Below the pieces are notes generated by a model. That model saw only the letters and a list, made by a program, of their open reading frames with translations, did no database searches and was not told where the DNA came from. A stretch of DNA of 64,000 nucleotides from an uncultured Bdellovibrio sp. (GTDB taxonomy: Bacteria > Bdellovibrionota > Bdellovibrionia > Bdellovibrionales > Bdellovibrionaceae): positions 11,182-75,181 of the forward strand of contig CAWVRN010000022.1 in the NCBI GenBank assembly GCA_963932905.1, written 5' to 3'. Both the position numbers and the translations under genes were made by a program. Numbering within the stretch: the first letter of the stretch is position 1; each line of letters begins with the position of its first letter. Positions 2,628 to 20,595 of this stretch are shown piece by piece.

Positions 2628-2921
2628 ATGTCTAAAACAGCTTATAAAGTTCTTATTCTAGGTGGTGGAGCAGGCGGAATTTCTGTAGCTGCAAAACTAA
2701 GGCGAGAATTGGATTCAGGGGAAATTGCGATTATTGATCCCACGGATAAGCATTTCTATCAGCCATTATGGACAGTTGCCGGAACAGGCTTAATGGATAA
2801 AACAGAAACAGAAAAAGATGAAAGAGACTTAATCCCCAATGGTGTGGATTGGATAAAAGAGTCTGTTCTATCAACAGGTCAAACAAAAATCACACCATCT
2901 CCGAAACCTCCTGTGGACTGA
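2628..2921 (+). pseudogene. sqr: Truncated sulfide:quinone oxidoreductase (N-terminal FAD-binding fragment)
   Basis: VLILGGGAGGISVAA and HFYQPLWT match the SQR N-terminus; similarity is lost after about 80 aa and the ORF stops at 97 aa (family is about 400 aa). Confidence 0.8.
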
Positions 2922-3059
2922 CATTAAGAGAGAACATTCTCAATCAGAAATGGAATATGAAAACGAAGTTTTAGATCTCTGGCACAAGTTGGCACGTCCA
3001 TGGCGCTCTGGACCCTGCTGCCTCCTGACCTCTACTTTTGGCACACTTTCAAAGCCCCG

Positions 3060-3130
3060 CCAGCAATACCACACCTCAATAAATTCAATTATCGCTGATT
3101 TCGCCTTGTACAGATGGGCAAATGTCATCA
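3060..3130 (-). mobile_element. Possible IS3-family transposase C-terminal remnant
   Basis: Minus strand reads TFAHLYKAKSAIIEFIEVWY, resembling the IS3 tail F..l.eA..aIfeyIevwYN; very short match. Confidence 0.4.
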
Positions 3131-3159
3131 ATTTTGGATGATGGGATTTTGACATCTAA

Positions 3160-3189
3160 AGAATGGGCTCAATTTCTTCAGCCCATTCT
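3160..3189. terminator. Stem-loop downstream of the kinase operon, possible terminator
   Basis: AGAATGGGCT (3160-3169) and AGCCCATTCT (3180-3189) form a perfect 10-bp inverted repeat; weak U tail. Confidence 0.5.
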
Positions 3190-3296
3190 GGTATTAGAAT
3201 TTTTCAAAAAGTAATTGCAGGCTTTTTATAAAAACGACATGAGATTTCTTAACAGCAGCCACTGACCATTCGGGCATGGCCGGTAGTTCAATGGAT

Positions 3297-4853
3297 CTAC
3301 CTAACAACCAAAGGCATATCGAGAATTTGGCTCTTAGGAATCAAATAAACCCCGTGACGGACGCATGCGGCTTGAACTTCGCTATTATCAAAATGGCCCG
3401 TAACCAAGCATCTAGTCGCGGTTGGTGGCGCTTTTTGAAGCCAGTCGAGACCGGTGTCATCCGCTCCCAAATCAAAGTCAAAAAGAAAGGTGCATAAGTT
3501 TGGTTGGATTTGAATATCTTGTTGCTCCGAGAGCAGTTCTTGTCCTTGGCTCATGAACTTAGTTCGTTTCAATAGATCGGTGTCGTGAAATTTTAATTTC
3601 CACAGCGCTCGGCCTGTTTCTTTATCGTCTAGAACATAAATTCGTGAATCTGCACTAAGTTTTAGTCTTGGTAAATACCATGCAGCCCTGTCCTTTGTCG
3701 GCAGTCGAATCCTAACCGTGGTTCCAATTCCAAGTACGGATTCCAACTTAACAGAACCGCCCCAAGCCTCAATATTTTCTTTGGCATGAGAAAGGCCAAT
3801 GCCTGATCCACTAATTTTGCCATGAGAAAAATTCTTCTCAAAAACATAAGGCACGTTTTTAGGATCAATTCCTTTTCCGTTATCAATTACTGAAATTTCA
3901 ACTTCACCACCGGCATCCTTAGCACGAACAACAATTTTTCCCGACAAATCAATCGCTTCAATAGAATTTGTTACTATGTTTCCCAAAATAGCTCGAAGCT
4001 CAACTGGGACATGTGACACTAATGTTGAGCAAATCATGTCGTCTACTTCATATTGAAAATCAATTGTTTTAGAAACATAAAGTGTAAGTTCTCGCTTTGC
4101 TTGCAATAAGGTGCTGTAAAGATCCGACTCGAATTCTTCTGACAGCTCGCCAATGGGTCTATCGTCAAGCTTTGCAATTAGCTCTTTAATCTGACTGATA
4201 GTGAGCTCTAAAAGTTCACGATCATTACCGACAGCCTCAGGTAATTTTTTTGGAATTCGCATTAGTGCGGCCAAGGGTGTGCGTAAGTTATGTCGCACTT
4301 GTTGAGCCACTTCACTTTTAGCAAGCTTTTTCTCGATTTCTAAATCTCGGTCAAACTGTTCAATTAACTTTCGCTTTAAAAAGCGCGTTTGTGGTATAGA
4401 CACTAGATTTAAAATCAGCCAAATTAGAAATGCGTAAGGAATTAAACGAAACCGTTCAAATTCAAAAACAATTTCATCTGTTGTTCCCGATGAAATAGAG
4501 CTCTGAATTGGTACACGAATAGAATCCCGGCTAGCTGTTTTCCAAAAACTTTGATCTTTAAAAACTTCTGCTTTAGGCGGAATCACGAACGATCTTCCAG
4601 GCTGAGTCGATTTATAGTGAATCGTAGTGAAGCTTGAGAGCCTGGCTTCTTGTAAAATCAAGGTTGCTTCTCTGAAATCCCCGATTTTAACCATCCTAGA
4701 TAAGAATCGAGTATTTTCCTCAGCTACTTTTTGCAAATGAAGCGCGTTGAAGACAACTGAAACTCCGCAAAAAATCAGAAGACATAGCCCCGAAATGATG
4801 TACTGCTTGCGTTCGAACGCTTTAATTTTATGCGCCGGTGTTTTATTATTCAT
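3297..4853 (-). CDS. Membrane hybrid sensor histidine kinase with a C-terminal receiver-like domain
   Basis: Two TM segments; H-box AQQVRHNLRTPL; N box NIVTNSIEA; DNGKGI and GSGIGL; C-terminal VLDD...FLFD...LVTG...IPK. Confidence 0.9.
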   Translation of the reverse strand: MNNKTPAHKIKAFERKQYIISGLCLLIFCGVSVVFNALHLQKVAEENTRFLSRMVKIGDFREATLILQEARLSSFTTIHYKSTQPGRSFVIPPKAEVFKDQSFWKTASRDSIRVPIQSSISSGTTDEIVFEFERFRLIPYAFLIWLILNLVSIPQTRFLKRKLIEQFDRDLEIEKKLAKSEVAQQVRHNLRTPLAALMRIPKKLPEAVGNDRELLELTISQIKELIAKLDDRPIGELSEEFESDLYSTLLQAKRELTLYVSKTIDFQYEVDDMICSTLVSHVPVELRAILGNIVTNSIEAIDLSGKIVVRAKDAGGEVEISVIDNGKGIDPKNVPYVFEKNFSHGKISGSGIGLSHAKENIEAWGGSVKLESVLGIGTTVRIRLPTKDRAAWYLPRLKLSADSRIYVLDDKETGRALWKLKFHDTDLLKRTKFMSQGQELLSEQQDIQIQPNLCTFLFDFDLGADDTGLDWLQKAPPTATRCLVTGHFDNSEVQAACVRHGVYLIPKSQILDMPLVVR

Positions 4854-5653
4854 TGGCCATCCGCCGTTTCTGCAACAAAACGAGCCGTCTGAATCGGCGC
4901 ACTTGATAGAATTGAAACTTGTGAATGATCGACGTGAACTCTTTTTAGCATCGGAATGTCAGTGCGGAAATCGTCTGCGTCAATGTCACAAACAAGCAGG
5001 GGTTCAATCTGAGATAAAAATTTTGAATCTATATGCCATGGGAGCTCTACATCAGACTTTTTGTTTTCATCGGTAAGCCATGCAAAATTTGGCAGAGCTT
5101 CCAATAACGATCGCTGAATACTTTTTTCTAAGGAATTCGACAAAGCAAATCCAAAAGCCGTGGCACCGCCAGAAGTGACCTTCATTGAACACACTAATCC
5201 GAATAGTTCTTGAGGCGTTTGCATTTTATAAAAACTTAATTCGGATTCGGGATTTAGATTTCTAAACTTTTTTGTATCGATGCTTTCAAGAAAAATTTGG
5301 TGAAATGGAATTTTTTCTTTAAGATGTTTTTTAAGATAAAATCGTTCCAAAGCCTCGTGACTGGCATGATCGATGGGATCATATGTGCTACCTATCGCAA
5401 ATCCAACGGAATCAAATCCCAAGCTTTTACAAATCAATCGCTCGATTGCCTCGGCAACGGATTTTTCAAGTGCAATTTCACGGCTAGAATCTACGCCTCG
5501 ACCTTTTGCCTCAGTACCATCCCAGGAAAGAGTCGTAGAAAAATCGTGTAACCCAGGAAGGATACGATTAGACCAGCTAAACTCTTTAAATCGAGGATTT
5601 AGCTCATGCCGTTTTGAATAAAGCCAAGCGGCTAGTGGAGTTTTATTCGCCAT
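4850..5653 (-). CDS. Minimal YcaO-like protein
   Basis: Three YcaO-type motifs in order: GRG..S...A..KSVAEAIER, DSVGFAIGST...HEALER, AFGFA......IQRSLLEA; only 267 aa. Confidence 0.65.
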   Translation of the reverse strand: MANKTPLAAWLYSKRHELNPRFKEFSWSNRILPGLHDFSTTLSWDGTEAKGRGVDSSREIALEKSVAEAIERLICKSLGFDSVGFAIGSTYDPIDHASHEALERFYLKKHLKEKIPFHQIFLESIDTKKFRNLNPESELSFYKMQTPQELFGLVCSMKVTSGGATAFGFALSNSLEKSIQRSLLEALPNFAWLTDENKKSDVELPWHIDSKFLSQIEPLLVCDIDADDFRTDIPMLKRVHVDHSQVSILSSAPIQTARFVAETADGQ

Positions 5654-7170
5654 AATTGATTATTCGCATAGAGTTCTGATAGTTCGATCTTCCAAGGTTT
5701 TCTAACTAAAGCCGCGTACGGTGATGCGATTAGCGGTACAATCGCAGGTTCAGATAATGCTTTATAATGAAGTTCCTTAAGCTTATTAATCCGTACTGCT
5801 TTATCATCAGTAGCCATGTAATCAGCTAGCCACGCCGAACGCTGCGACTTTGAAAGCCCCAAGAGTCCAGCATTTAATGAATACGAAATAAGACTAATGT
5901 CTTCCATAAATCCGGTGTCTCCTGATGCAAGCCACGCATGAGGAATATCTTCTTCATTTTCATATTTCTTAAATTCCGGCGAATTTGTTTCTTGGTAACA
6001 ATTAGCCATAGGAAGTGCCGTCTGGATCGGGTTCGCCCATTCTTCAATGGCAGAGCGCCGGATGAGTCCAAGTTTAAAATGCTTTTTCGGAGCAGTCATA
6101 TCTTGAGTGCTTACTTCGACGAGACGTTGCTGCTGCTGAACTGTCAGTCCACCTTCGCCAAGGCTTGGAAAAAACTCAGCTCTTTGCTCATAACCCGGAA
6201 TATTTTCATAAAGTTTTGCAAAGACGGCTTTCATCTTTTCGCCAATAAATCGTCTTTCACCAGCAGATAGTTCTTTTTGGCCTCGTTCAGTAAAAACGAG
6301 AAAAAGACTTCTGATTTTCATTGTTACGTGACTTTCAAAATCTGCATTATTTGCAGCAAAGCGAAGCGCCTCACTCACTTTGGTTGAGTCTACTGTGGTT
6401 AAATGATCAATCCGATTTTCTTTTAGAGCGGTAAGGCTTGAATTCATAACCGAAGTGTCCATGGGCACTAATACGATCTTGTCAGCGATCTCAGAAGACG
6501 CAAAATAATGATTCGGATTCAGCCTAAGTACGATGTTTCCATTTCCATCATCTTCTGACAGCGAATATGGACCACTTGTTTCAGAAAAATTCGTAATTTT
6601 TAGTGTTTTTGGATCAACGCTAGATTTTGGGATTATAGCAAAATCAATCGCTGAAAGCATTGGCAGCAAAAACGATTTTCTTCCCTTGGCTTCAAGGTAC
6701 ACATGCCCGTTGTCCTGTCGAATGCCAGGGCATGGGTCTTCAACTGATTTTAGCTCGACGCCAGGGCAAACAATATCTTTAAAATTCCCATGTGTATTGC
6801 CGGAAAGAATTAAAAGTCTTTTTAACGAAAAAATGACGTCATCAGCGGTGATAGGAGCACCGGAAATAGTTTTTAGACCCTTTCTGATGGTGAGTCGAAG
6901 CTCGTCACCGACCCAATCAACCTTTTCAGCAACACCAGGCTCGATGGACCCACTTTTTGAGATTTCAACGAGCGGCGAAAACACATTCTCTAAAAAAATA
7001 TACTCATAGTCCATACTGATGCTGGTCGGCTCATAAGTTGAGGCCTTCAGCTTAGCTGGAAAGGCCACTCGCAATGTTCGATCTTTATTTACATTTTTCA
7101 TAGAAAGCAGTCCTCCGACAACGAGCACAACAGCGGTCAATGTTAGCATTTTGATAGTAATATTCTTCAT
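5632..7170 (-). CDS. Family 5 (OppA/DppA-like) extracytoplasmic solute-binding protein
   Basis: N-terminal signal/anchor; VFSPLV...IEPGVAE, LTIRKG...SGAPITADDVIFSL, SGPY and LRLNPNHY motifs. Confidence 0.85.
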   Translation of the reverse strand: MKNITIKMLTLTAVVLVVGGLLSMKNVNKDRTLRVAFPAKLKASTYEPTSISMDYEYIFLENVFSPLVEISKSGSIEPGVAEKVDWVGDELRLTIRKGLKTISGAPITADDVIFSLKRLLILSGNTHGNFKDIVCPGVELKSVEDPCPGIRQDNGHVYLEAKGRKSFLLPMLSAIDFAIIPKSSVDPKTLKITNFSETSGPYSLSEDDGNGNIVLRLNPNHYFASSEIADKIVLVPMDTSVMNSSLTALKENRIDHLTTVDSTKVSEALRFAANNADFESHVTMKIRSLFLVFTERGQKELSAGERRFIGEKMKAVFAKLYENIPGYEQRAEFFPSLGEGGLTVQQQQRLVEVSTQDMTAPKKHFKLGLIRRSAIEEWANPIQTALPMANCYQETNSPEFKKYENEEDIPHAWLASGDTGFMEDISLISYSLNAGLLGLSKSQRSAWLADYMATDDKAVRINKLKELHYKALSEPAIVPLIASPYAALVRKPWKIELSELYANNQLWRIKLH

Positions 7171-7182
7171 ATAATTCTGACC

Positions 7183-7458
7183 TTAATATGGTCCTCCACC
7201 AAGACAAACCGTGTCGGGATCTGTTGTGCCACGGTCAATACGGCCTTCAGATTCAAGAACGCTTAGAATATCGTGATCAAATTGCACGCACTGGTTTTGG
7301 TTTGCTGTCAGGGTTTTAGTGCTACCTAAAATCCTAATCGCCCAGGCGATCTGCTGTTTTTGCAGCGGAGTCAACTTCTTGGCCTGATCTACATCAGCTA
7401 AAGCCGTGACGTTAATTCCCACCATCCCTGCGAAAATTGCTAAAATTGTTTTCTTCAT
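7183..7458 (-). CDS. Small secreted protein (91 aa), candidate signal precursor
   Basis: Sec-type signal MKKTILAIFAGMVGINVTALA; GAGGGGG SD; start overlaps the regulator stop; two Cys; ends TVCLGGGPY. Confidence 0.75.
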   Translation of the reverse strand: MKKTILAIFAGMVGINVTALADVDQAKKLTPLQKQQIAWAIRILGSTKTLTANQNQCVQFDHDILSVLESEGRIDRGTTDPDTVCLGGGPY

Positions 7459-8846
7459 AATTCATCCCCCTCTAATGTTTTTTGTTTGAGTTCAAATCCA
7501 TATTTTTTCATTTTTTCACGTACAGTACTCCGACTAAGACCTAGTATTCGGGCTGTAGCTGCTATCGATCCACCTTCTTCGATAGCTTTTAGAACAATTT
7601 TTTTCTCGGTGCTCATTTGACTCAGTTTAAGCATTTCTAAATCCGCAGGCTTTATTTTTATGTTAGAAATGTCGGCTCGTGTTTTTAATAAATCGGCATC
7701 CAGGTATTTTTCTGGCGAAAGGTTTACTAAAAATCGAATGCAATGCTCTAGTTCACGCACATTGCCTGGCCAACTTAGTTTTTTAAGTTCCTCAGCAGTA
7801 GATTCTAGAAGAATTTTATTTTCTCCTGACTCTGCATTGGCTTTTTTTAAAAAAGCTTGCGCCAGAATAAGAATATCTTCTGGCCGTTCTCTGAGCGGCT
7901 TGACATTAATAGGAAGGACATTGAGCCTAAAGAACAAATCCTCACGAAAAGATTTTTCTGCAATCAGTTTTTCTAACGGAGCATTGGTCGCTGCAATTAG
8001 TCTGAAATCTATTTTTTTACTTTCATTTGAACCCACAGGAGTAATTGTTTTTTCTTGAAGAACACGCAGTAAAGTGGCCTGCAAATGTTTCGGCATTTCG
8101 CCGATCTCATCTAAAAAAATCGACCCGCCGCTAGCACTTTCAAAATGGCCTTTTCGGCTGCGAGCGGCTCCAGTGAAGGCGCCTTTTTCATGACCAAAGA
8201 GTTCACTTTCAATTAAATTTTCTGGAATAGCAGCGCAATTGACAGCAACAAATGGCATTCTGTTTCTTGGCGAAAGATTGTGTATGGCGCGGGCCACTTT
8301 TTCTTTTCCCGTTCCATTTTCGCCACGAATCAAGACCGAATCATTTGCTGGTGCAAATTTTTGAATGAGCCTTGCTACATCAGCCATTGATTCTGAAACT
8401 CCAATCATGCCAACCGATGAAATTAATTTTTGATTGTCTGTGTGTGTAGAAATTAACAGCGGTTTTTCACGACGTTCGACTTCACGACAGGCGCGATGCA
8501 AAATCCCCAGCAGCTTTGCTTCGCCGATATCTTTTTCAACAAAGAAAACTGCACCAGAGTTTAAAGATTTATTGTGCGCATCGATAGAATCATCACCAGA
8601 CAAAGCCAGGACAGTAAGCTTAGGTTCAATCTGTTTGAGTTTTTGAATAGTCTCAGGGCCTTGGATTTCTGGCATATGGTAATCAACTAGGGCTAAAGAA
8701 AATGATGCTACCCTTTGACGAATAAGTGCGATGGCCTCATCACCGGTAGACACAGCACGAACAAAGAAGCCTTCATCGTTTAAAAACGAAGTCATTGAAC
8801 GCCGAAATGCCAGATCATCATCTACGAGTAGGATGTTGTGCTTCAA
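7455..8846 (-). CDS. Sigma54-dependent NtrC/AtoC-family response regulator (REC-AAA+-Fis HTH)
   Basis: LLVDDD, LVDYHMP, GENGTGKE, ESELFGHEKGAFTGA, FLDEIGE, WPGNVRELE and a C-terminal HTH; TTG start. Confidence 0.95.
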   Translation of the reverse strand: MKHNILLVDDDLAFRRSMTSFLNDEGFFVRAVSTGDEAIALIRQRVASFSLALVDYHMPEIQGPETIQKLKQIEPKLTVLALSGDDSIDAHNKSLNSGAVFFVEKDIGEAKLLGILHRACREVERREKPLLISTHTDNQKLISSVGMIGVSESMADVARLIQKFAPANDSVLIRGENGTGKEKVARAIHNLSPRNRMPFVAVNCAAIPENLIESELFGHEKGAFTGAARSRKGHFESASGGSIFLDEIGEMPKHLQATLLRVLQEKTITPVGSNESKKIDFRLIAATNAPLEKLIAEKSFREDLFFRLNVLPINVKPLRERPEDILILAQAFLKKANAESGENKILLESTAEELKKLSWPGNVRELEHCIRFLVNLSPEKYLDADLLKTRADISNIKIKPADLEMLKLSQMSTEKKIVLKAIEEGGSIAATARILGLSRSTVREKMKKYGFELKQKTLEGDEL

Positions 8847-8883
8847 ATTTTAATTCCCCCCACATTTTCCCTTCAATCACTGT

Positions 8884-8900
8884 TACAAATATAGTGCCCA
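8884..8900 (-). promoter_or_regulatory. Candidate sigma54 (-24/-12) promoter of the regulator operon
   Basis: Minus strand TGGGCACTATATTTGTA versus consensus TGGCAC-N5-TTGCW; GT in place of GC at -12. Confidence 0.55.
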
Positions 8901-9068
8901 AGCAGTTTGAACGCGAGCCTGCGTTTAAACAGATTTAGTAAAGTAACTCGCTTTAGATAAGGACTTTTAAGAGCCTAAAATGTGAATTTTCTGCATGGTC
9001 AAACTGCACCGGCTTTGCACGCACCTCGTAAGTGATTGTAACATCAATCGATTTGAATGGTTTTGGGG

Positions 9069-9384
9069 TGGCGGTTGTCCGCCAGGGGAACCTCCATAGG
9101 ATTCGCATAATTCGCCAAGCGATGTTGCTCGCTTGATTGGCCCCGTTCAAATTGGAATAGTATTTGCGATTAGTACCAACACAGCACACGTTAAGAGCAA
9201 ATTTTTTATTCAATTTAAACGATAGGGATTCAATAACATTAATCTGATGGCTAAAGCTTAGTAGTCCGCGGCTTCACCTGGCGATAATCTTGCCGCCACT
9301 GGTGGATAGCCGCCACCCTCATCATTTTTCTAAATCTTTGAATTGCTTTCTAATTTCCAAAACAGGGGTGGCGAATAACCGCCA
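9069..9384. promoter_or_regulatory. Three palindromic operator/enhancer sites, consensus TGGCGG-N4-CCGCCA
   Basis: TGGCGGttgtCCGCCA 9069-9084; TGGTGGatagCCGCCA 9300-9315; TGGCGAataaCCGCCA 9369-9384. Confidence 0.7.
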
Positions 9385-9551
9385 CCTATTTTCATAAAGC
9401 ATTTTTCTGCTTCGTTCATTTTTTTCATTCTTATCATTTACTTAACTGTTTTGGCTTCTCATTAAAATTTGTTGTTGTCGTTCTTGCTCCTTAGATCACC
9501 TCAATGGCTGTCGTAGTGGCGGCTTCTAACACAAACAAAGGAGGTGCATCT

Positions 9552-9758
9552 ATGAATGCAAAACAAAATAGAGAGCAAACAAAACATCGGACACAGCTAA
9601 ATCTAGCGCTGATCACGTTAGAAAAAGCTGAGCCGCGCTCAATCTGGCAAAAAATCAAATCAGTGCTTTCAACATCTGATTTAGATTTTGAAAATTGGCA
9701 GCGACTGGAGTCAAAAAAATTTAAACATGGTTTCTCCGACCAGAGGAGGAATCAATAA
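9552..9758 (+). CDS. Hypothetical protein, first gene of the transfer operon
   Basis: Strong AAGGAGGTG SD before ATG 9552; coupled to the next gene. Confidence 0.65.
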   Translation: MNAKQNREQTKHRTQLNLALITLEKAEPRSIWQKIKSVLSTSDLDFENWQRLESKKFKHGFSDQRRNQ

Positions 9759-10009
9759 TGTCCCGTACATTAAAAGATAAAAGACCTATTTATCGCCGTG
9801 ATGATGAACCCATTTACAAAACTCATGAGGAACCTGTTTTAAAACGACGATTTCTTAACTTCAGAAAATCAGGACCACGCCTGGACGGAGAAGAGTGTCC
9901 AGAATGTGGCGGGCTTACACACTTTCAAAGTGGTTATCTAACTTGCTGTGAGTGCGGCTGGACAGAAGATGTAGTTGATATGTGTGATTTGGAAAGGTTC
10001 GCCGTATGA
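9758..10009 (+). CDS. Small zinc-ribbon protein
   Basis: CPECGG...CCECGW; GGAGG SD; overlapping start and stop codons on both sides. Confidence 0.7.
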   Translation: MSRTLKDKRPIYRRDDEPIYKTHEEPVLKRRFLNFRKSGPRLDGEECPECGGLTHFQSGYLTCCECGWTEDVVDMCDLERFAV

Positions 10010-10419
10010 GTAAGCGAGCAGATTTTCCTTTTAGCAACGTAATTCCCATCAGAAAAACAGATCACTTTGGCGTATACACCGGCGATGTGCTTCCAAGCGG
10101 TGAAGTTATTGAAGGAGAAAGTGTTGGAATTGCTTTTTTAAAACAAGGCAGCAAGAAATTTCGTCTTAAACTCTTTGTTTATCCGAACAATAGCTACTTC
10201 GTCGTTCCCGACGACAAAGACGACGCCAAGTACATCGTTCTAAGCCTAGAGGAATACCAGCTTTCCGGGGGCGAAACACGTTCGCATTGGAACCGGATCG
10301 GCGAAGGAAAACTTACCGGAAGCTTTATCGCGCTTCGACTACAGCTCATTCCGGAGCCGCTATTCCTGTGTCTATTTCCAGAAAAAAATATCGCCGAGGA
10401 GGACGCAATTGCATCTTAA
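10006..10419 (+). CDS. Hypothetical protein
   Basis: 137-aa ORF with ATGA coupling inside the operon. Confidence 0.65.
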   Translation: MSKRADFPFSNVIPIRKTDHFGVYTGDVLPSGEVIEGESVGIAFLKQGSKKFRLKLFVYPNNSYFVVPDDKDDAKYIVLSLEEYQLSGGETRSHWNRIGEGKLTGSFIALRLQLIPEPLFLCLFPEKNIAEEDAIAS

Positions 10420-10456
10420 TCAATTTACTCAAAACAAAAATATAGGAGGTGAAAAT

Positions 10457-10741
10457 ATGAATCGAAAACAATTCTTTTTCTATGCCGTACTCACAGCTAT
10501 GATCTTTATCGTTCCAGAGATTGGCCTAGCGAGTGTGGAATCTTCGCTTATGGGGATTCAAACAAAGCTCACGCGAGTAATTCTACCGTCGCTCTCGATC
10601 TGCGCCATTGCCTGGGCTGCATTTTCAATGATGTCCGGCAATGACAAATCAAAAACGCATCTTTGGTATGCGATTATTGCAACGATTGTGGGCTTCGGGG
10701 CGGAATCCATCGTTAATTTTATATCAACGACGGTGCGCTAA
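10457..10741 (+). CDS. TrbC/VirB2-like conjugative pilin
   Basis: GGAGGTG SD; leader ending PEIGLA followed by two hydrophobic helices; sits before VirB3/VirB4-like genes. Confidence 0.75.
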   Translation: MNRKQFFFYAVLTAMIFIVPEIGLASVESSLMGIQTKLTRVILPSLSICAIAWAAFSMMSGNDKSKTHLWYAIIATIVGFGAESIVNFISTTVR

Positions 10742-11064
10742 TGAGTAACGAATCAATTCTAACTTCGACCGTGCCACGCACGCTAGAAACAAAAAACAAA
10801 ATTTTAGGATTGGAACTTTCAGACGTTCTTGTCCTTCTTCTTAACCTTTCAGCGCAAAACCTAGTTTTTGGGTCAACAAGTTTTAAAATTCCGATGGTGT
10901 TTGGAACAAGTTTATTTCTTGGGCTAACTCTTTTCTTTTTCAAAAAAGGAAAGCCCGATCACTACCTTCAACACTTCGTTGAGCATTTCATTTCACCAAC
11001 GGTTTTCGCGGCGAACGCAATTGATCTTCAATACCGCAGATTTAACAAAGGGGGTAAGTTATGA
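10741..11064 (+). CDS. VirB3-like membrane protein
   Basis: VPRTL...KILGLE..D plus two TM segments, directly upstream of the VirB4 ATPase. Confidence 0.7.
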   Translation: MSNESILTSTVPRTLETKNKILGLELSDVLVLLLNLSAQNLVFGSTSFKIPMVFGTSLFLGLTLFFFKKGKPDHYLQHFVEHFISPTVFAANAIDLQYRRFNKGGKL

Positions 11065-13523
11065 TTGAAGCTGCATTGTGTGAACAACTTCCATTTTGGG
11101 AATTTGAACAAAACCCGATTCCTCATGCCATTTTATCGGACGGCTCTATTTCGGCTGGTATCGAGCTTTTGCCACTAGATATTGAATGCTTTGATGAATC
11201 CAGAATCAATCAACTGACATTAGGATTAAGAGCGTTTACCAACTCGCTACCAGAAGGAACCACGGCGCAATTTTTAGTAAAGGTTGAATCTGACATTGAA
11301 GAAGTTCTTAAAAAACACTGTGACTTAGTTTCTACTGAAAATGAATTTTTAAAACACCTTGACGAAAAGCGATCACTACACTTATTCGATCAAATTCAGT
11401 CAGAATCTATTTTTCGACCAAGGCTTTTCTTTTTCCTAAGAACGTCTGGTGTTCAAAAGCCCAAGGCGCTTTCTTTCGGTAAAACTAAAACATTTTCAAT
11501 GGAATTTGAAAAAAGTCATGAAGATCGGATTCAGACTCTAGGTCAGGCCATTGAAGGTGCGTCTGGCCTTCTTTCATCACTTGGGTTTACGACAACTCGC
11601 TGCGAGCGAGAGGATCTTATTCAAATCCTTTACAGCTATTTTAACCCTAAACGATCCAAGGAAATCGAAAAGCCGCATGTTTCAATAAAATCAACCGATT
11701 TAGACGACATTTCCCCAAGGGCACAAATTGTGTTTGGCGATCTGATTCTTGATCGTGAAGATTTTATTTTAGATCAGCGTCGGACTAGAGTCCTCACTTT
11801 AAAAACGCTTCCTGAAATGACTTTCGGTGGAATGATGAGCTCTTTTCTGGCTTTGCCATTTAAATATGAACTAATTTTTTCGTTTCGTATCCAGGACCAA
11901 GCGAGTGAGATAAAAGTATTAGAAAGTAAACGCCGTATGGCACATTCGCTTTCCAGCACAGCAAGCAATAGAGTCTCAGATTTGGAGAGCGAATCAAGGC
12001 TTTCACAAACGACTGATCTTCTACGTGAGCTGATCGAAACTGGTCAGCGCATTTACCAAGCTGAAATGATAGTGATTCTTCGTGAATCAGCAAGTATCGA
12101 AGGTGAAAAGAAATTAAACTTACGAACGAAAGAAGTTTTGTCGCGGTTTAAAACCTTAAGTGGCTCTGAAGGAATTCAAGAAACCGTCGGTGCTTGGAAA
12201 ACATTTAAATCAGATTTACCTTTGGCCCCGCTAAGTCTTGTACGCGCGAAAGCCATGAAGACAAACAATCTTGTTGATTTTCTTCCGCTCTACGGAGCTG
12301 CCACAGGTGACGATAATCCGGTTTGTTTAACAAAGACTCGGCTCGGAACACTGTATTCTTATGATCCCTATTCATCTCGTCTTAGCAACTACAATGTGCT
12401 TACGACAGGTTCTAGCGGATCAGGAAAAAGCTTTGCAAATAATTTTTTGATGCTTCAGCAGATCGCGCGCGGCAGCAGACTATATGTGATCGACATTGGT
12501 GGATCATACAAAAAGATGACCGAGGTTTTAGGTGGCCAGTATTTTGAGATCAATCTTTCTGGCACATACGTCATTAATCCTTTTGAATTGTTAAATCCAG
12601 CCGAACCTCCAAGTGGAGATCGCCTTAAAGGCTTTGTCAGCATCATCGAGCAAATGGTCGTCGATCAGGGTGAAAAATTAAACCGTTTTGATCGAGTTCA
12701 GCTAGAGGCGGCATTGACGGCAGTGTTTGAAAAAGCCCGGAAAGAATCCAAACCTCGCTCGCCTTTACTCACGGATCTTGCAAAACATTGCCTGAACGAT
12801 TCTGAAGAAAGTTTAAAACGAATTGGAAAGCTTCTTTTCCCGTGGGTTGGTAAAACTCCCTATGGAAAATTGCTTGATGGCGAGGGAAAAATTGCAGTTG
12901 ATAAATCTGTCGTAGCCTTCGACCTGAAAGGACTTTCGCAGTACCCGGATCTTCAATCAGTGATGATTCTGATTTTGACAAACTTCATTTTAGAGCAAGT
13001 CGAAACTAATCGCACAGTTCCAAAGCGCGTTTTATTAGATGAGGCCTGGGAGCTTTTAAAAAGTCCAGCAGCAAGTTCTTTTATGGAATATGCCGCACGC
13101 ACGTTTCGTAAAACTGGAAGCGGAATCACATTCATTACCCAAGGCGTGGAAGAGATTATTGCAAGCGGAATGGGGCCAGCGATTTTAAATAACACGGCCA
13201 CAAAACTTGTAATGCTCCAAAAGGGCGACACGAATGTTCTGCGCGAAGCTTTAAAGCTCAATTCACAAGAGCTTAGGCTTATTCAAAGCTTAGAGCAAAG
13301 AAAAGGACTATTTAGTGAAGGCTTTTTAATGGAGGGTGAAAGCCGTCAGATTATCCGAATTGAACCATCACCACTGGAATATTGGATTTCGACTTCTGAT
13401 GCTCGTGATAATCAGTTTTTAAATCAATTGCGTGATAAGGGCCACTCGCTTGAGTCAGCTTTATTGAAAGCGGCAGAGCTTGCGCCATTCGGAGTTTCTT
13501 CCATGAAGGCGGTGGCCGCATGA
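11061..13523 (+). CDS. virB4: VirB4/TraC-family conjugative ATPase
   Basis: 820 aa; Walker A GSSGSGKS, VIDIGGSY, INPF, LLDEAW, RTFRK, ITQ. Confidence 0.92.
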   Translation: MIEAALCEQLPFWEFEQNPIPHAILSDGSISAGIELLPLDIECFDESRINQLTLGLRAFTNSLPEGTTAQFLVKVESDIEEVLKKHCDLVSTENEFLKHLDEKRSLHLFDQIQSESIFRPRLFFFLRTSGVQKPKALSFGKTKTFSMEFEKSHEDRIQTLGQAIEGASGLLSSLGFTTTRCEREDLIQILYSYFNPKRSKEIEKPHVSIKSTDLDDISPRAQIVFGDLILDREDFILDQRRTRVLTLKTLPEMTFGGMMSSFLALPFKYELIFSFRIQDQASEIKVLESKRRMAHSLSSTASNRVSDLESESRLSQTTDLLRELIETGQRIYQAEMIVILRESASIEGEKKLNLRTKEVLSRFKTLSGSEGIQETVGAWKTFKSDLPLAPLSLVRAKAMKTNNLVDFLPLYGAATGDDNPVCLTKTRLGTLYSYDPYSSRLSNYNVLTTGSSGSGKSFANNFLMLQQIARGSRLYVIDIGGSYKKMTEVLGGQYFEINLSGTYVINPFELLNPAEPPSGDRLKGFVSIIEQMVVDQGEKLNRFDRVQLEAALTAVFEKARKESKPRSPLLTDLAKHCLNDSEESLKRIGKLLFPWVGKTPYGKLLDGEGKIAVDKSVVAFDLKGLSQYPDLQSVMILILTNFILEQVETNRTVPKRVLLDEAWELLKSPAASSFMEYAARTFRKTGSGITFITQGVEEIIASGMGPAILNNTATKLVMLQKGDTNVLREALKLNSQELRLIQSLEQRKGLFSEGFLMEGESRQIIRIEPSPLEYWISTSDARDNQFLNQLRDKGHSLESALLKAAELAPFGVSSMKAVAA

Positions 13524-14221
13524 AAAAGAAATTTGTCGCAATTTCGTTGTGCTTTTCCATGATGCTTTCCCCAAGGGCCGCGAAAGCGGACCTCTTTGGC
13601 GGAGATGTTGCCGTTCTTCTTCAAATTCTTGCGCAGGCCATTCAAACCGTTACGACACTTCAAAGCGTTTTAGAAAACGGCAAAGATTCCCTTAATCTTA
13701 TGCGCGATCTAAATGCTGGGATTAGAAGTGGTATTGATGTCATTCGTATCATCAATCCTAACTTCAATCCAGGTGTCTATGGGGATTTAAAAGATGCTGA
13801 TCGTGTGCTTGCTGCGATTGAAGCTGTCTATGGAATTGTACCAAAAGGCATGGACGAAGACCTTATGCGTTCGCAAGATCAAAGCGTTTCTGAAGTTATC
13901 GCTATGAATCGTAATCTTTACGACTACGCCGATCAAGTGGACCTCGAGCGTGACAAAATTATTTATCACGCTCAAGTCGTTAGCCCCCAAGGGGCTGGCA
14001 AGCTTCAAAACCAAGCTTTAGGCGTTCTAATCGGGGTCACTACGCAGCTTCTTCGCACGCAAAGTCAAATGCTCAAACTCATGGCGCAAAACATGGCCTA
14101 TGACACGCGACAGGAAAAGCTATCAACACAGAACTTTCAGGAAAACTATCAGGGGCTCTCGAAAGGGTTTGAAAGTTTACCGAAAGACACAAAGCTTCCG
14201 CGCTTAGGTGGTGGCAAATGA
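13520..14221 (+). CDS. VirB5/TrbJ-like exported protein
   Basis: Signal peptide ending AKA; helical Q/L-rich sequence; lies between VirB4 and a VirB6-like gene. Confidence 0.55.
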   Translation: MKKKFVAISLCFSMMLSPRAAKADLFGGDVAVLLQILAQAIQTVTTLQSVLENGKDSLNLMRDLNAGIRSGIDVIRIINPNFNPGVYGDLKDADRVLAAIEAVYGIVPKGMDEDLMRSQDQSVSEVIAMNRNLYDYADQVDLERDKIIYHAQVVSPQGAGKLQNQALGVLIGVTTQLLRTQSQMLKLMAQNMAYDTRQEKLSTQNFQENYQGLSKGFESLPKDTKLPRLGGGK

Positions 14222-15093
14222 TGCCAAATCTTGAAGTGCTCGGAACTTTAGTGCGCGAGCTGTACCAAGGGTTAAGCCAGCTTTTCTATCTGATGTTGCC
14301 TGTTGCGATTTTATTTTCAGTGGTCTTTGGCTTTTTGAAGTCAGGTGATCCAAATTATCCAGACATTCTGAAGCGGGCTTTTGTTGCAGCACTTCTTATT
14401 GTTTCATTTCCTGAAGTTTCAAATCTTATTCTGGATGTTTGTGATGGTATAGCTTCAAAAATTGACGATATGTCGGGCCTTGAAGCTTTTATGAAGATTG
14501 CGCAAGAGAAATCACTTGGATATGCCGCCGCCAAGAAAATTCTGCTGCTAAAATTCGATGGCTTTTTTATGGCGATTTTAAGTTTTGCAAGCTTTGCTCT
14601 ACTCTATATCGCAAAGTATTTGACGGTTGTTCTTTACTATTTTTATTGGGGACTTTTGTCGATTGCAGCACCTCTGATGATTCTTTGCTATATGTTTCCA
14701 GCAACAGCCAACATCACTGTGAATCTCTACAAGGGTCTAATTGAAGTTGCGTCATGGAAAATTATCTGGGCGATTTTATCGGCCATGCTGAAATCAATTT
14801 CGTTTGGATTCATCTATGAAAATGAGCAATCCTATCTGCCACTTGTAGCCATGAATTTTATTATTGCTATCGCTCTACTTTTTACTCCAAGGATTTTGAA
14901 ATCATTAATTGGTGAAGGTGTTCAATCAACAGCAGCAAATATCGGAGCAACAGCCGTTTCGGGTGTAATGACTGCTATCACGCCAGCGGCAAAATTAGCA
15001 CAAGGAGCAAAGCTTTCGCAAGTCATCATGCCGCGAGCGTGGAGTGTTCCTAATCAAAAATTCAAACCAACAACAACAAACAAACGACCTTAA
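14218..15093 (+). CDS. VirB6/TrbL-like polytopic membrane protein
   Basis: About 6 TM segments, APLMI motif, A/G-rich tail; gene order. Confidence 0.65.
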   Translation: MMPNLEVLGTLVRELYQGLSQLFYLMLPVAILFSVVFGFLKSGDPNYPDILKRAFVAALLIVSFPEVSNLILDVCDGIASKIDDMSGLEAFMKIAQEKSLGYAAAKKILLLKFDGFFMAILSFASFALLYIAKYLTVVLYYFYWGLLSIAAPLMILCYMFPATANITVNLYKGLIEVASWKIIWAILSAMLKSISFGFIYENEQSYLPLVAMNFIIAIALLFTPRILKSLIGEGVQSTAANIGATAVSGVMTAITPAAKLAQGAKLSQVIMPRAWSVPNQKFKPTTTNKRP

Positions 15094-15113
15094 CGGTCAA
15101 AGGAGGTATTTTT

Positions 15114-15704
15114 ATGAAAGATAAAATTTCAATCCAACTTAGTTCATACCCAAAAGCCATGCGAGAATTTGCCGAAGAAAATTTAAATATCAAATTTCTT
15201 CTAAGCGCATTGCTTGCGGTTACATTTTTAATGCTGATTTTAGTGCTTTACCTTACTAAGCAAGGCCCAAAGGTGATCGCACTTGAAAGTAGTGGCGCAA
15301 TCGCTACGATTGAAACCAAAGTCACCGATGCGCAAATTGAATCGGCTGCGAAAGAGTACATTCGTCACCGCTATTCATGGAATGAGCAAACTATTTCCGA
15401 AGAGCTATCAAAAGCAAAATTTTTTGTTTTGCCGTCGCTAGCCTCAGCGTTTGAACGCTCGATGCAAGAGACAATGAAGTTCGTTCGAGAAAAGAAAGTT
15501 CGACAGCGTGTTTATCCAAAGACCATCACAGTTGATCTAAAAGAAAAACGAATTAGTGTTTTAGCGGATCGAATTACAGAGTTTGATAACCTGAAGGCTG
15601 CAACCGAGCTTAGGCTTTCTCTTCAGTTCACAATTGATGATCGAACTGTCATTAATCCGTGGGGTGTGTATGTAACAAAAGAAACTGAGGAGGCTACACT
15701 ATGA
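15114..15704 (+). CDS. VirB8/TrbF-like protein
   Basis: Single N-terminal TM and the C-terminal RTVINPWGVYV signature. Confidence 0.75.
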   Translation: MKDKISIQLSSYPKAMREFAEENLNIKFLLSALLAVTFLMLILVLYLTKQGPKVIALESSGAIATIETKVTDAQIESAAKEYIRHRYSWNEQTISEELSKAKFFVLPSLASAFERSMQETMKFVREKKVRQRVYPKTITVDLKEKRISVLADRITEFDNLKAATELRLSLQFTIDDRTVINPWGVYVTKETEEATL

Positions 15705-16414
15705 GGTTGTATATAATTTCTTTCGTTTTTTCGATTTTTATTACAACAACCGCAAGTATTGCTCAGATCCGAAAAACACACGCCAAAGAAGACGACATCC
15801 TTACAGTTAAAACGGCTTTGGGGATTGCAACGCTCTTGCAACTTCCAGAATCCATTCAATCAGCGATTATTGGTGATCTATCAGGGTTTAAAATCGAGTA
15901 TCTTGAAAAAGCAGTAACGATCAAGCCCCTTCGCTTCGGTGCAAAGACTAATTTGTATCTGGTAACGGGATCTCGGCGCTATAATCTTAGGCTGGTAACT
16001 GGAACTCAAGAGCTAGCTGATTATATCGTGTACTTAAAGAAACCAGAAACACCAAAGCCTGAAACGAAGTGGCGTAATTTTTCTAAATCAGCCACGCAAA
16101 AAAATTTGAAACTTTCAGTTGTTCGAATCGGACAGACGCCAAGTGGATTCATCTTGATGGATGCAATTCTAACTTCGACTCAAGTTCAGCGAATAACAGT
16201 TCGGCCTGAATCTATTTGGATTAAGCAGGCTGGAAACTCAAAAGTCATAAATAGTCTTTTTATGTCCGATTCTAAGGTCGAAAAAGATAAAGCGCTACGG
16301 ATCGGTCTATCGCTAGCTAAGTCTGATTTAGCAGCTGGAAAGCCCATAACAATTGAGGTCAATTCAGAGCAATCTATATCCCTTCAAATCTTGGAGGCTG
16401 AATTATGGAAGTAA
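15701..16414 (+). CDS. VirB9/TrbG-like outer-membrane core protein
   Basis: Signal peptide; TALGIATLLQLP, IKP and KTNLYLVT..RRYNLRL motifs. Confidence 0.75.
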   Translation: MRLYIISFVFSIFITTTASIAQIRKTHAKEDDILTVKTALGIATLLQLPESIQSAIIGDLSGFKIEYLEKAVTIKPLRFGAKTNLYLVTGSRRYNLRLVTGTQELADYIVYLKKPETPKPETKWRNFSKSATQKNLKLSVVRIGQTPSGFILMDAILTSTQVQRITVRPESIWIKQAGNSKVINSLFMSDSKVEKDKALRIGLSLAKSDLAAGKPITIEVNSEQSISLQILEAELWK

Positions 16415-17364
16415 AAAATAAACTCTCCGTTATTAGAGACAAGCTTAAAACATTAAAAAATGGACTAAAAACTTCTGTCATCCAAGAAAATGCATTCAGT
16501 AAAAAATTTGATCTGAATATCAAGACCATAAAACTTTTAGCGATCTTTGGCGTAGTAGTTTTCGTCACCGTTGTATTTATGATTCCAACGGACGTTCCTA
16601 TCGAATTTACGGAAAAGATTGAACGCTCGGATGAAAAGAAACCTGATTCTAACAACTCGCAAAATGCATTGCAAAACCAACAATCAGCTCAAGCGCTATG
16701 GGCAGCACCCAGGGTTTCGATTCCGGGTGGATCAGCAGGAAACCCGGTCAATTACAATACATCAATGATCGTTGGTTCAAAACTCGGTAACGCAAAGACC
16801 GAGCTGCGCTCTGGAATTCGCGTGGCTTTAAGACTTATGGATAAGGTCATAGTTTCTCAAGACCCTGTTCCAATCTTGGCAGAGTCTATCCTTGATTCGG
16901 TTTCTGACTCTGGGTTAAGGCTTCCAGCTGGAACAAAATTCTACGGACAAGCGAGCTTTCAAAAAGGATCTGATCGTGCGCAAATTCGCTTCGATCAAAT
17001 TTCTTTAGCCAGCGGACAAATCAAACGCATTTCAGCATTTGCGCTAGATAAATCAGGACAGGCAGGCATTTCGGGAAAAGTTTTTTCAGATGGAATGAAA
17101 AACGCAACTGGCCAAGTACTTACAACCTTTGTTGGGGGACTTGCCGCAGGAAGCATGCAAACCGATATTAAGGGAAATTCCAAAGGCGGCATTGAAAATG
17201 GACTACTCGGTGCGGTCGCTGCAACTGCACAGACTCGTGCGCAAAACTACGGCGAAAAATTAAAAACCGAAAGAGAATGGATCGAATTAAACCCAGGCAC
17301 CGAGTGTGATGCGGTTTTAAATGATGCTTTCAAATTACAAGAAGGAGGTGAAAATTATGAGTAA
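16405..17364 (+). CDS. VirB10/TrbI-like core protein
   Basis: One TM, low-complexity linker, LPAGTKFYG, DRAQIRF and D.SGQAGI.G motifs. Confidence 0.8.
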   Translation: MEVKNKLSVIRDKLKTLKNGLKTSVIQENAFSKKFDLNIKTIKLLAIFGVVVFVTVVFMIPTDVPIEFTEKIERSDEKKPDSNNSQNALQNQQSAQALWAAPRVSIPGGSAGNPVNYNTSMIVGSKLGNAKTELRSGIRVALRLMDKVIVSQDPVPILAESILDSVSDSGLRLPAGTKFYGQASFQKGSDRAQIRFDQISLASGQIKRISAFALDKSGQAGISGKVFSDGMKNATGQVLTTFVGGLAAGSMQTDIKGNSKGGIENGLLGAVAATAQTRAQNYGEKLKTEREWIELNPGTECDAVLNDAFKLQEGGENYE

Positions 17365-19006: not shown

Positions 19007-19296
19007 TGAAGCGTTTAGTTTTATCACTTCCCTTTGTTTTGGCTAGCTGTGCTCATTCGCCAAAGTGCGGAAATCCAGAGGGCGCAAGAATCATTTTTAC
19101 AGGTAAAAAAACTTGTGAAGTCCGTATTCGCCAGGTGACGATGGGATCAGAGCTTAAAATCCCACAATCACTAAAAGGTGCAGCACTTGCGGATTTTACC
19201 CTAGACTGGATAGAACCAACATTAGAATCTGGCCGGATTGAGCTTGGACACTTTGTTTTAATTCCGTCATCTAACTCAAAGGATCAAGCACGATGA
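19003..19296 (+). CDS. Small lipoprotein (possibly VirB7/TraV-like)
   Basis: Lipobox LASC; coupled within the transfer operon. Confidence 0.55.
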   Translation: MMKRLVLSLPFVLASCAHSPKCGNPEGARIIFTGKKTCEVRIRQVTMGSELKIPQSLKGAALADFTLDWIEPTLESGRIELGHFVLIPSSNSKDQAR

Positions 19297-20108
19297 GAAC
19301 CCCAAGCAATAAAATCATTTTAGATTCCTTAGAATTCGCAGCACGCTGGGGCTTTTTGACGCGAGAACTTTTTTTTGATTTTATTTGCCCAATGAGTCAG
19401 GCGCAGCAGTACCGCTATTGGAATTACCTAATGACCTCCGGCTTATTTGTAAAATCCCGACACTCAACGAATAATCTAATTTTAGCAAAGAAGGGACGAG
19501 CGGATTTTGGCAGCTCCGCACGTCCGGCAAGATCACATTTCTATGTCGATCATGACGCACTTGTGGCAAGATTCTTTTTTGCCTTTGAAAATCGAGGCTT
19601 GATCGCGAGCTCTTGGCTTGAAGATGAATTTATGCGTAACCCTGTTGAAGCTTATGACGTTTTGGGTATGCCCCAGATTCAGCGTATACCGGATTTAGTA
19701 TTTGATTTAAAAACAGCGAACGGTTCCACTGTTCGATGCGCATTAGAGATCGAAAAGGTTACAAAATCTCAATCGCGTTATGCAAAAATGGCACTGGCGT
19801 ATTTGAATGCCAGTAAGATTGACGTAATTCTATTTGGTTGTATTCAACCAACAACGGAAAGAATTGTTCAGCGAGCGTTCAACACCGCAGCTCTTTTAGA
19901 ATCTAAGCGAATACCAGGAACATTTTTGCTTGATGAATTCGATCCTGGATCACTTGAAACAAGTTTGAAGTTTCAAAGCAACACAATGAGCATCAAGCGA
20001 TTTGTCGAAGTTGTTACAAAGCAAAGTGTTCCGCAAATGAGAAAATCACGAGAAAAACGCGATTCTGAATTCTCATCAGAAATAAATAAAAAACCGGAGG
20101 CTGCATGA
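19293..20108 (+). CDS. Replication-relaxation (Replic_Relax/MOBL-like) relaxase
   Basis: N-terminal wHTH-like GFLTRE, then HD motif and PD...ALEIEK..KS..RY nuclease core; follows the coupling protein. Confidence 0.7.
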   Translation: MRTPSNKIILDSLEFAARWGFLTRELFFDFICPMSQAQQYRYWNYLMTSGLFVKSRHSTNNLILAKKGRADFGSSARPARSHFYVDHDALVARFFFAFENRGLIASSWLEDEFMRNPVEAYDVLGMPQIQRIPDLVFDLKTANGSTVRCALEIEKVTKSQSRYAKMALAYLNASKIDVILFGCIQPTTERIVQRAFNTAALLESKRIPGTFLLDEFDPGSLETSLKFQSNTMSIKRFVEVVTKQSVPQMRKSREKRDSEFSSEINKKPEAA

Positions 20109-20140
20109 TGACTTTCCAAAGTAAATTCAACATGATCGCG

Positions 20141-20530: not shown

Positions 20531-20595
20531 TATCAGCACGATCAAGCTACAACCAAAACAGAAAATTCAAATCACAAACCAAAGGAGGTGCCATT

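Follow-up and report, generated by a model that had tools for sequence, protein, structure and literature searches.

The 64,000-nt stretch of DNA from an uncultured Bdellovibrio sp. analysed here (contig CAWVRN010000022.1, positions 11,182 to 75,181; hereafter the window) carries five closely packed genes next to a conjugation operon. Judged from their sequences, these genes are best explained as parts of a single sensory module, a sigma-54 two-component system that activates itself and is carried on an integrative conjugative element (ICE). The module probably switches on both its own genes and the DNA-transfer machinery of the element: once phosphorylated, its regulator would bind palindromic DNA sites and, together with sigma-54, turn on its own operon in a positive feedback as well as the transfer genes.

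A sensory operon divergent from the conjugation genes

All five genes lie on the minus strand. In the order of transcription they encode an NtrC-type sigma-54 enhancer-binding response regulator (7455–8846), a 91-aa small secreted protein (7183–7458), an orphan family-5 (OppA/NikA-like) solute-binding protein (5632–7170), a 267-aa compact YcaO-fold protein (4850–5653) and a hybrid sensor histidine kinase (3297–4853). Successive genes are joined by a 4-nt overlap (7455–7458), a 12-nt gap (7171–7182), a 22-nt overlap (5632–5653) and another 4-nt overlap (4850–4853). The operon is divergent from a plus-strand operon for a conjugation-type type IV secretion system (T4SS; 9552–19006), comprising small open reading frames (ORFs) and genes for a VirB2-like pilin, VirB4/TraC, a VirB6-like protein, VirB8, VirB9/CagX, VirB10/TrbI and the coupling protein. 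An earlier note on this DNA, made from the letters alone, had described the same packing and orientation, which the ORF list of the window reproduces exactly, and all five of its gene identifications hold up in Pfam and NCBIfam scans, a fold search and alignments. One 1775-nt metatranscriptome contig from a single run covers 6638–8390 (regulator, small protein and binding protein) at ∼93% identity, a weak hint that the module is expressed; assembled contigs show no transcript ends or levels, so that a single transcript is unproven, DNA carry-over is possible and the uncovered parts are uninformative.

The regulator, which begins with a TTG codon, combines a REC domain, an AAA+ domain in whose translation we read the GAFTGA motif, and a Fis-type helix-turn-helix (HTH). 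Its Pfam matches were Response_reg (1.8e-20), Sigma54_activat (9.2e-71) and HTH_8 (1.2e-8), in agreement with NCBIfam, and the genome also encodes rpoN (220 bits). Orthologs with 63–75% identity are the first gene of the module in 11 loci. The binding protein has an N-terminal hydrophobic anchor or signal and a partial SBP_bac_5 match (1.5e-12), and its best solved relatives are peptide and nickel binding proteins (E 2.5e-6 or weaker). A scan of 69 ORFs from all parts of the window revealed no ABC permease or ATPase family, which leaves the binding protein without a transport partner there, as the earlier note had said.

The kinase has two hydrophobic segments, read by eye, around a ∼100-aa periplasmic domain, followed by an H-box (H188), a catalytic domain (HATPase_c, 1.9e-21) and a divergent C-terminal receiver. 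Pfam Response_reg did not match this C-terminus even at E ≤5. In an alignment of 24 kinases, H188, N292, N296, D324, G326, G328, D409, D410, D459 and K507 were invariant, and T485 of the receiver was conserved in at least 90% of the sequences. Since the receiver residues D409, D410, D459 and K507 do not vary, the kinase is a true hybrid with a divergent receiver, which bears out the earlier call made despite the missing Pfam match. No Hpt domain is encoded in the module. The orphan binding protein and a kinase with a periplasmic domain appear to form the kind of sensor arrangement found in LuxPQ, TorTS and AioXSR.

The module recurs widely. We compared the window with 14 close loci from metagenome-assembled genomes of Bdellovibrionota and with 16 distant loci whose YcaO proteins are 25–36% identical. 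All 14 close loci contained, in the same order, every module gene that their contigs had room for, and this genome itself holds four copies (in the window, on C22, and on contigs C1, C30 and C56), a recurrence that exceeds what chance would give. The earlier note had named a failure of the genes to occur together, or with T4SS loci, elsewhere as grounds for refutation; the order was kept in 14/14 close loci, with T4SS genes near several. In the distant loci, the YcaO and kinase genes were adjacent in 16/16, binding protein, YcaO and kinase genes stood together in 14/16, and the regulator was present in 11. The core of small protein, binding protein, YcaO and kinase thus persists to ∼25% identity, and even in such copies the binding-protein gene still overlaps the YcaO gene by 22 nt. 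In 29 further short loci, YcaO was preceded by the binding-protein gene 27 times and followed by the kinase gene 27 times; in metagenome loci the corresponding counts were 4/4 and, where the contigs were long enough, 2/2. Overall, 56 of the 401 genomes in a sample of the phylum contained a relative of the module, and neighbours from Verrucomicrobiota and Pseudomonadota in the ESM Atlas are leads only.

T4SS genes adjoin the module in the window. Of the 11 close loci whose contigs extend far enough to show it, 7 have such genes next to the module as well, and they are near 5 of the 16 distant loci. They are co-directional with the module in six close loci and divergent in the window and L008. 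The copy on contig C1 belongs to a second complete element, where module and T4SS are co-directional. The C30 (1–6500) and C56 (1–5665) copies are near-identical to each other, divergent from the window module and located at contig ends; they encode a YcaO protein of 292 aa, a kinase of 546 aa and a small protein of 94 aa, and behind their kinase gene a canonical sigma-54 promoter leads into a zinc-ribbon ORF at the contig end. At one distant locus (L051, 281–6683, minus strand), the module is followed not by a T4SS but by a row of GNAT acetyltransferase genes, a glyoxalase-family gene and a transpeptidase-domain gene.

Predicted regulatory sites common to module and T4SS operon

The predicted sites in the DNA between the two operons give good support to a sigma-54 switch that activates its own module and also serves the T4SS genes. 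On the module side, a sigma-54-type promoter (GGCAC-N5-TTGTA; 8882–8899, minus strand) lies ∼35 nt before the TTG start of the regulator, and a GGCA(C/T)-N5-TTG element was present 35–45 nt ahead of the start codon in all 12 regulator-upstream regions compared. In 9 of 11 distant modules we detected a canonical sigma-54 motif (TGGCAC-N5-TTGC type, score ≥16.5) just upstream of the regulator start, with only 0.013 motifs of this score expected per upstream region of this kind. The motif was 16–60 nt before the called start in eight of these, and 60 nt inside an over-long ORF in L053. Approximately 170 nt upstream of the window promoter there is a 16-bp palindrome, TGGCGG-N4-CCGCCA (9067–9085), a candidate activator site that recurs as a TGGCGG-type palindrome in 8/12 regulator-upstream regions. 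Between the two lies a conserved CAATCACTTA box (9024–9039, minus strand), which by eye resembles WATCAANNNNTTR, the consensus of the integration host factor (IHF). An 86-aa ORF with a TTG start (8953–9213, minus strand) spans the palindrome and this box; it has no family match and is unlikely to be a gene.

In 7/7 window-type loci, two to three copies of the same palindrome stand before the T4SS operon, again followed by a similar IHF-like box. In the window these sites are palindrome cluster A (9279–9317); the perfect palindrome B, GGTGGCG-N6-CGCCACC (9367–9386), which has no mismatches and is aligned in 6/6 loci; an IHF-consensus-like box found by sequence comparison of the loci (9431–9446, plus strand); and a T4SS operon promoter element (9480–9496, plus strand) with a conserved −12 TTGCT and a conserved TA-rich box downstream. 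The start ATG of the operon at 9552 is itself conserved across the aligned loci. An exact TGGC-N7-TTGC at 9279–9293 was considered as the sigma-54 promoter of the T4SS operon and rejected, being part of palindrome cluster A, whose half-sites produce the match by chance, and not conserved as a promoter. A strict scan (score ≥17.5) gave no conserved sigma-54 site before window-type T4SS operons. At the homologous promoter position, C30/C56, L059, L063 and L065 read TGGCAC-N5-CTGC.

Other lineages have palindromes of their own, namely GTCCGG-N4-CCGGAC in C30/C56, GTTCGGA in L059, TGACGG in L065 and CGACGA in L051. When the kinase gene is followed by a T4SS-type operon, the palindromes of that lineage recur before it and are followed by a canonical sigma-54 promoter; module-specific palindromes and then a TGGCAC-N5-(C/T)TGC-type promoter were found in this way in C30/C56, L059, L060, L063 and L065. 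A gene for a zinc-ribbon protein (C-x2-C ... CC-x-C-D-W) is the first behind the T4SS promoter in L014 (12690–13000), L060, L059 and L063; this small gene is absent from the window, C1, L001, L003, L011 and L008.

Furthermore, the residue that follows T-(V/L) in the recognition helix of the regulator HTH tracks the type of palindrome. Arg accompanied TGGCGG in 6/6 regulators having that site (the window, L001, L005, L014, L060 and L052), including L052 and L060 at only 33% and 56% identity, while His went with TCCGG/TTCGG (C30, L059) and Ser, Asn and Ile with three other palindromes. This co-variation of helix residue and site supports the view that the palindromes are the regulator's own binding sites.

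A YcaO-fold protein and a small secreted protein

The fourth gene encodes a protein without a signal peptide by eye, and hence predicted to be cytoplasmic. A single-sequence AlphaFold2 model had a predicted local distance difference test score (pLDDT) of 31 and was discarded, and the model built from an alignment of 98 homologs reached a pLDDT of 92. All best Foldseek matches to this model were YcaO proteins: 6ci7 (E 7.6e-9), then 6pe3, LynD, E. coli YcaO and McbD. An independent fold search (VIA) returned 6ci7_A (Z 16.5), 4v1t_A (16.0), 6gos_D (15.3), 6pe3_A (15.2) and 4q84_A (14.9), with 238–255 residues aligned in these top five (239 for 6ci7_A), and the next match had a Z score of 7.1. Both searches confirm the YcaO fold of the predicted structure, and with it the YcaO-like call of the earlier note. 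At the sequence level, 12 of 38 close homologs gave a YcaO Pfam match at E ≤1 (best 1.2e-5), and one member of the family searched against PDB chains at E ≤10 found no YcaO. Distant relatives of ∼320 aa exceed the Pfam YcaO cut-off (up to 63 bits; 25 of the 27 scanned match at E ≤0.01). The best NCBIfam match of these longer relatives is the azoline-forming SagD model TIGR03604 (E 1e-7 to 1e-18), though they fall short of its cut-off, and they score lower on the thioamidation model than on SagD. A profile search of 1.84 billion representatives yielded 676 cluster representatives of the family at E ≤0.001. The acidic pairs E68/E71(R72) and E100/E103(R104), as well as E185, were unchanged across 21 diverse members. 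H96 is also invariant.

The small protein encoded between regulator and binding protein matched no Pfam or NCBIfam family. By eye, it has a Sec-type signal peptide cleaved after ALA21 (A21 is nearly invariant), a helical region, a near-C-terminal Ile-Cys and a Gly-rich tail. In an alignment of 17 sequences, L68 and C85 were the only invariant residues after the start Met, and I84 was nearly invariant; the one invariant feature of the mature protein is a Cys near the C-terminus preceded by Ile. The window protein has another Cys that its relatives do not keep, and what is conserved is therefore not a disulfide. An ORF with a signal peptide precedes the binding-protein gene in 14/16 distant loci. 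Of these 14 distant small proteins, 13 contain the Cys, which is at most 10 residues from the end in 12, and the exception has, by eye, a Ser there. In five lineages the protein ends one residue past the Cys (ICL, ICW, ICF, ICY, ICM), and in others a short, often Gly-rich tail follows (CLGGGPY in the window; CGGGGVGGLQ; CNSGGGGGR). A lone Cys or Ser beside runs of Gly, encoded next to a SagD-like YcaO, looks like a cyclodehydratase substrate.

These features suggest how the two proteins could fit into the circuit. In an ATP-dependent reaction, the cytoplasmic mini-YcaO would modify the Ile-Cys site ahead of Sec export; the simplest product would be a thiazoline. A ligand in the periplasm, likeliest the co-encoded small protein or its C-terminal tail, would be read jointly by the OppA-like binding protein, tethered to the membrane, and the periplasmic domain of the kinase. 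Such a signal could act in the producer's own periplasm or be shared between cells. The full chain, in which the YcaO marks the small protein before export and the pair of binding protein and kinase reads the mark, is our tentative reading, and we place its probability slightly below even.

Several results weigh against parts of this picture. The window YcaO itself matched no Pfam or NCBIfam family, PF02624 included, and a profile of its family searched against PDB sequences at E ≤1 found no YcaO. Its ATP motif is only partly canonical: motif 2 reads D-x3-H-x3-E-x2-E-R, with His96 for Gln, Asp92 for Glu and Ser out of register relative to Sx6-7Ex3Qx3ExxER (quoted in PMC7774982). A His is reported to be preferred in motif 2 of thioamide-forming YcaOs (PMC8120280). 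The window type lacks the PHP tail (xPHPxG) that closes the longer relatives. Azoline cyclodehydratases have a proline-rich C-terminus (PxPxP). The presence or absence of a PHP tail does not sort cleanly with the tail type of the small protein. Pfam and NCBIfam revealed no E1-like or RiPP recognition element (RRE) partner among the five genes, and the module encodes no dehydrogenase, protease or exporter. The candidate substrate carries a Sec-type signal peptide in place of a leader peptide, an arrangement that to our knowledge has no precedent among YcaO substrates, and a 7-kDa periplasmic protein has no obvious way out of a diderm cell. Two loci (L053, L054) have regulator, YcaO and kinase without an adjacent small protein, and L053 also lacks the binding protein, a pattern that links the YcaO more closely with the kinase than with the small protein. 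As for the switch, the upstream palindrome was not seen in C1, L012 and L013 among the 12 regions. The −24 GG of the T4SS promoter is lost in the window, C1, L003, L011 and L008, where the −12 TTGC and the downstream box are kept, and this loss makes the sigma-54 dependence of the window copy uncertain. Finally, no relaxase family was identified in family scans of the window proteins.

Alternative readings and known systems

With the output wiring unchanged, the mini-YcaO could instead act on the cytoplasmic side of the kinase, either as an ATP-dependent accessory, as PII is to NtrB, or as an enzyme that modifies the backbone of the kinase, of its receiver or of the regulator. In that case the small protein would be a periplasmic accessory of the ZraP/CpxP kind, and the ligand sensed by the binding protein would come from outside, peptides for example. 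We consider this rather unlikely, though it is the main rival. YcaO and kinase are the most constant pair (adjacent in all distant loci, with the 4-nt overlap in the window), a pair that survives the loss of the small protein in L053 and L054 and of the binding protein in L053. The two fastest-diverging parts among close relatives are both cytoplasmic, the YcaO (50–58% identity) and the kinase receiver domain (35–54%), compared with 58–67% for the catalytic core. The divergence of the one showed no apparent correlation with that of the other. The window-type YcaO also lacks the C-terminal tail of its longer relatives, and murein-peptide and oligopeptide binders are among the remote solved relatives of the binding protein. 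YcaO enzymes are moreover known to modify whole proteins, namely McrA (PMC5589413) and uL16 (PMC13063428). What this explanation leaves unaccounted for is a small protein whose near-terminal Cys (once Ser), flanked by Gly, is maintained in 14/16 distant loci, as well as the greater likeness of the longer relatives to the azoline-forming SagD family; nor does any conserved target rich in Cys, Ser or Thr stand out in the kinase alignment.

A further reading develops the exported and possibly modified peptide of the earlier note: a diffusible pheromone would be released and bound by the binding protein of neighbouring cells, for pherotype-specific and density-dependent control of mating. Positive autoregulation of an operon that includes a secreted protein is a classic quorum-sensing loop, and the four copies in one genome, which use at least two different types of DNA site, suggest insulated channels. 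However, pherotypes are not apparent: the mature small protein is conserved over its whole length (64–75% identity among close relatives), and neither it nor the kinase periplasmic domain (63–72%) has diverged more rapidly than the other parts. The pheromone would have to be a ∼70-aa protein in the periplasm of a diderm cell, with no exporter or protease in the module, and chromosomal copies exist outside any mobile-element context, all of which makes the pheromone improbable. Those chromosomal copies also bear on whether the module might be mere cargo, a sensor in control of nothing but itself or distant genes whose place next to the T4SS is incidental. Housekeeping genes (Mfd, NADH dehydrogenase, TatC, YbeY) surround five distant copies, with no T4SS genes nearby, no T4SS gene was seen within the available flanks of four close loci (L005, L006, L007, L009), and a related T4SS element on contig C12 has no module. 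Still, module and T4SS operon are preceded by the same palindromes both where the two are divergent and where they are co-directional, and five further lineages combine module-specific palindromes with canonical sigma-54 promoters before T4SS-type operons, so that we regard incidental adjacency as very improbable. The link to the transfer genes drawn by the earlier note is thus upheld by the neighbourhood of the T4SS and by the palindromes common to both operons, whereas an exclusive tie to conjugation is not: the copies among housekeeping genes point to a general sensor module that elements have adopted rather than to a device for conjugation only.

Within the preferred reading of a sigma-54 switch with a YcaO-marked signal, the sensory half has known counterparts. 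AioX-AioS-AioR (arsenite), LuxP-LuxQ-LuxO, TorT-TorS and ChvE-VirA-VirG each have an orphan periplasmic binding protein encoded beside a membrane kinase. The output regulator of the Aio and Lux systems is a sigma-54 activator, and ChvE-VirA-VirG controls a T4SS. None of them, however, includes a YcaO-fold protein or a co-encoded small secreted protein with a Cys tail, and here the binding protein is of family 5 (peptide/nickel type) and the circuit rides on a mobile element that it appears to control. In the Aio system, the periplasmic sensor is AioX, the kinase AioS and the regulator AioR (PMC7565993).

On the enzymatic side, the YcaO shares its fold (Z 15–16) with those of the azoline-forming systems for peptides that are made by ribosomes and then post-translationally modified (RiPPs), such as TOMM/SagD, McbD and LynD; its longer relatives are SagD-like and have a Pro-His-Pro tail, and the neighbouring small protein has an invariant Cys next to Gly-rich sequence. 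Microcin B17 likewise has Cys next to a Gly-rich sequence. In contrast to these systems, the YcaO here is ∼100 residues shorter than the smallest solved YcaO, lacks an E1-like/RRE partner, dehydrogenase or dedicated exporter, and belongs to a two-component operon rather than to a biosynthetic cluster, and its candidate substrate has a Sec signal peptide, a conserved ∼50-aa body and a single site. The best structural matches are the TfuA-independent thioamidating YcaO of methanogens (6ci7, 6pe3) and E. coli YcaO, which act on protein substrates without an E1-like partner. Thioamide-forming YcaOs are, as said, reported to prefer a His in motif 2 (H96 here), but no sulfur-delivery partner is encoded nearby in our case.

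In RapI-PhrI (ICEBs1) and PrgX-cCF10 (pCF10) of Firmicutes, a mobile element likewise codes for a small product that is exported, and an OppA-type protein takes part. There the peptides enter through an Opp permease and act on cytoplasmic RRNPP receptors, whereas the circuit here has no permease, uses a membrane kinase as its receptor and gives its output through sigma-54; indeed, neither a permease nor an RRNPP/TPR receptor was detected in the module or the window ORFs scanned. OppA-like proteins of family 5 can bind azole-bearing or otherwise modified ribosomal peptides, as YejA does with phazolicin and MbnE with methanobactin, but these two feed ABC importers and not a kinase. YejABEF is reported to be an uptake route for phazolicin (PMC10128002).

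The earlier note did not recognise the architecture as a described system, and in a limited literature collection we likewise found no published description of it, nor any account of a YcaO together with a two-component, sigma-54, solute-binding or conjugative system. Two-component systems assisted by a binding protein and acting through sigma-54 are known, AioXSR being an example, but none is known to have a YcaO and a secreted protein with a Cys tail among its constant components. New at the level of sequence are the conserved sigma-54-type promoter with its palindrome, the same palindromes at the T4SS operon, the tracking of site by helix residue and the invariant Cys. Taken to its full extent, this could be a new class of signalling, in which a minimal YcaO backbone mark (azoline or thioamide) on an exported small protein is read by an OppA-like receptor and a hybrid kinase, forming a self-amplifying and possibly cell-to-cell conjugation switch in the elements of predators, with other outputs for the chromosomal versions; we judge this unlikely as a whole. 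How the decision to transfer is made in conjugative elements of diderms outside Proteobacteria is largely unknown, and the module offers a readable circuit with sites, promoters and a co-varying specificity residue. In addition, it brings a YcaO enzyme into a two-component operon, from a family of 676 representatives for which we found no published account. Were the YcaO to mark the small secreted protein, RiPP-type chemistry would be linked to receptor-kinase signalling; were the kinase its target, the YcaO would represent a kinase accessory of a new type.

The conjugative element and its surroundings

Several features suggest that the carrier is an ICE: the T4SS, the coupling protein, a large serine recombinase adjoining a tRNA-Gln gene, a second complete copy on contig C1 and a patchy distribution. 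The recombinase (21381–23156, plus strand; Resolvase, Recombinase and Zn_ribbon_recom domains) marks the right end of the element. The tRNA-Gln gene (23135–23210, minus strand) abuts it as the probable right border, the last 22 nt of the recombinase ORF (23135–23156) overlapping the 3′ end of the tRNA on the opposite strand. A search for long direct repeats at the ends of the element found none, as expected for a serine recombinase. The left border is bracketed at 2921–3238, as the DNA contigs of one run break at 2921 and the contig of a relative diverges to the left of 3238. A 97-aa N-terminal fragment of a Pyr_redox_2 gene (sulfide:quinone-reductase-like; 2628–2921, plus strand) stops where the element starts, and the gene may have been truncated by the insertion. 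Upstream of it lies a cluster of genes for sulfur handling (rhodanese, Sulf_transp, DUF6691, TauE) that is intact. No family match was obtained for four ORFs that separate the coupling protein from the recombinase (19293–21457, plus strand), and a relaxase may hide there.

Elsewhere in this genome there is at least one further related T4SS element without the module; this element (C12, 9379–22326) has a VirB4 that is 51% identical and a serine recombinase of its own, and there are three distant VirB4 loci besides (C3 and C1, 360–365 kb) and many serine recombinase genes. Just outside the element, the window contains a complete operon of the MoxR-DUF58-VWA-BatA/BatD-TPR 'aerotolerance' type (26220–33840, plus strand). 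Further along (49201–51717, minus strand) is an adaptive-response row with genes for an Ada/AlkA fusion, an Ogt-type methyltransferase and an AlkB-like dioxygenase.

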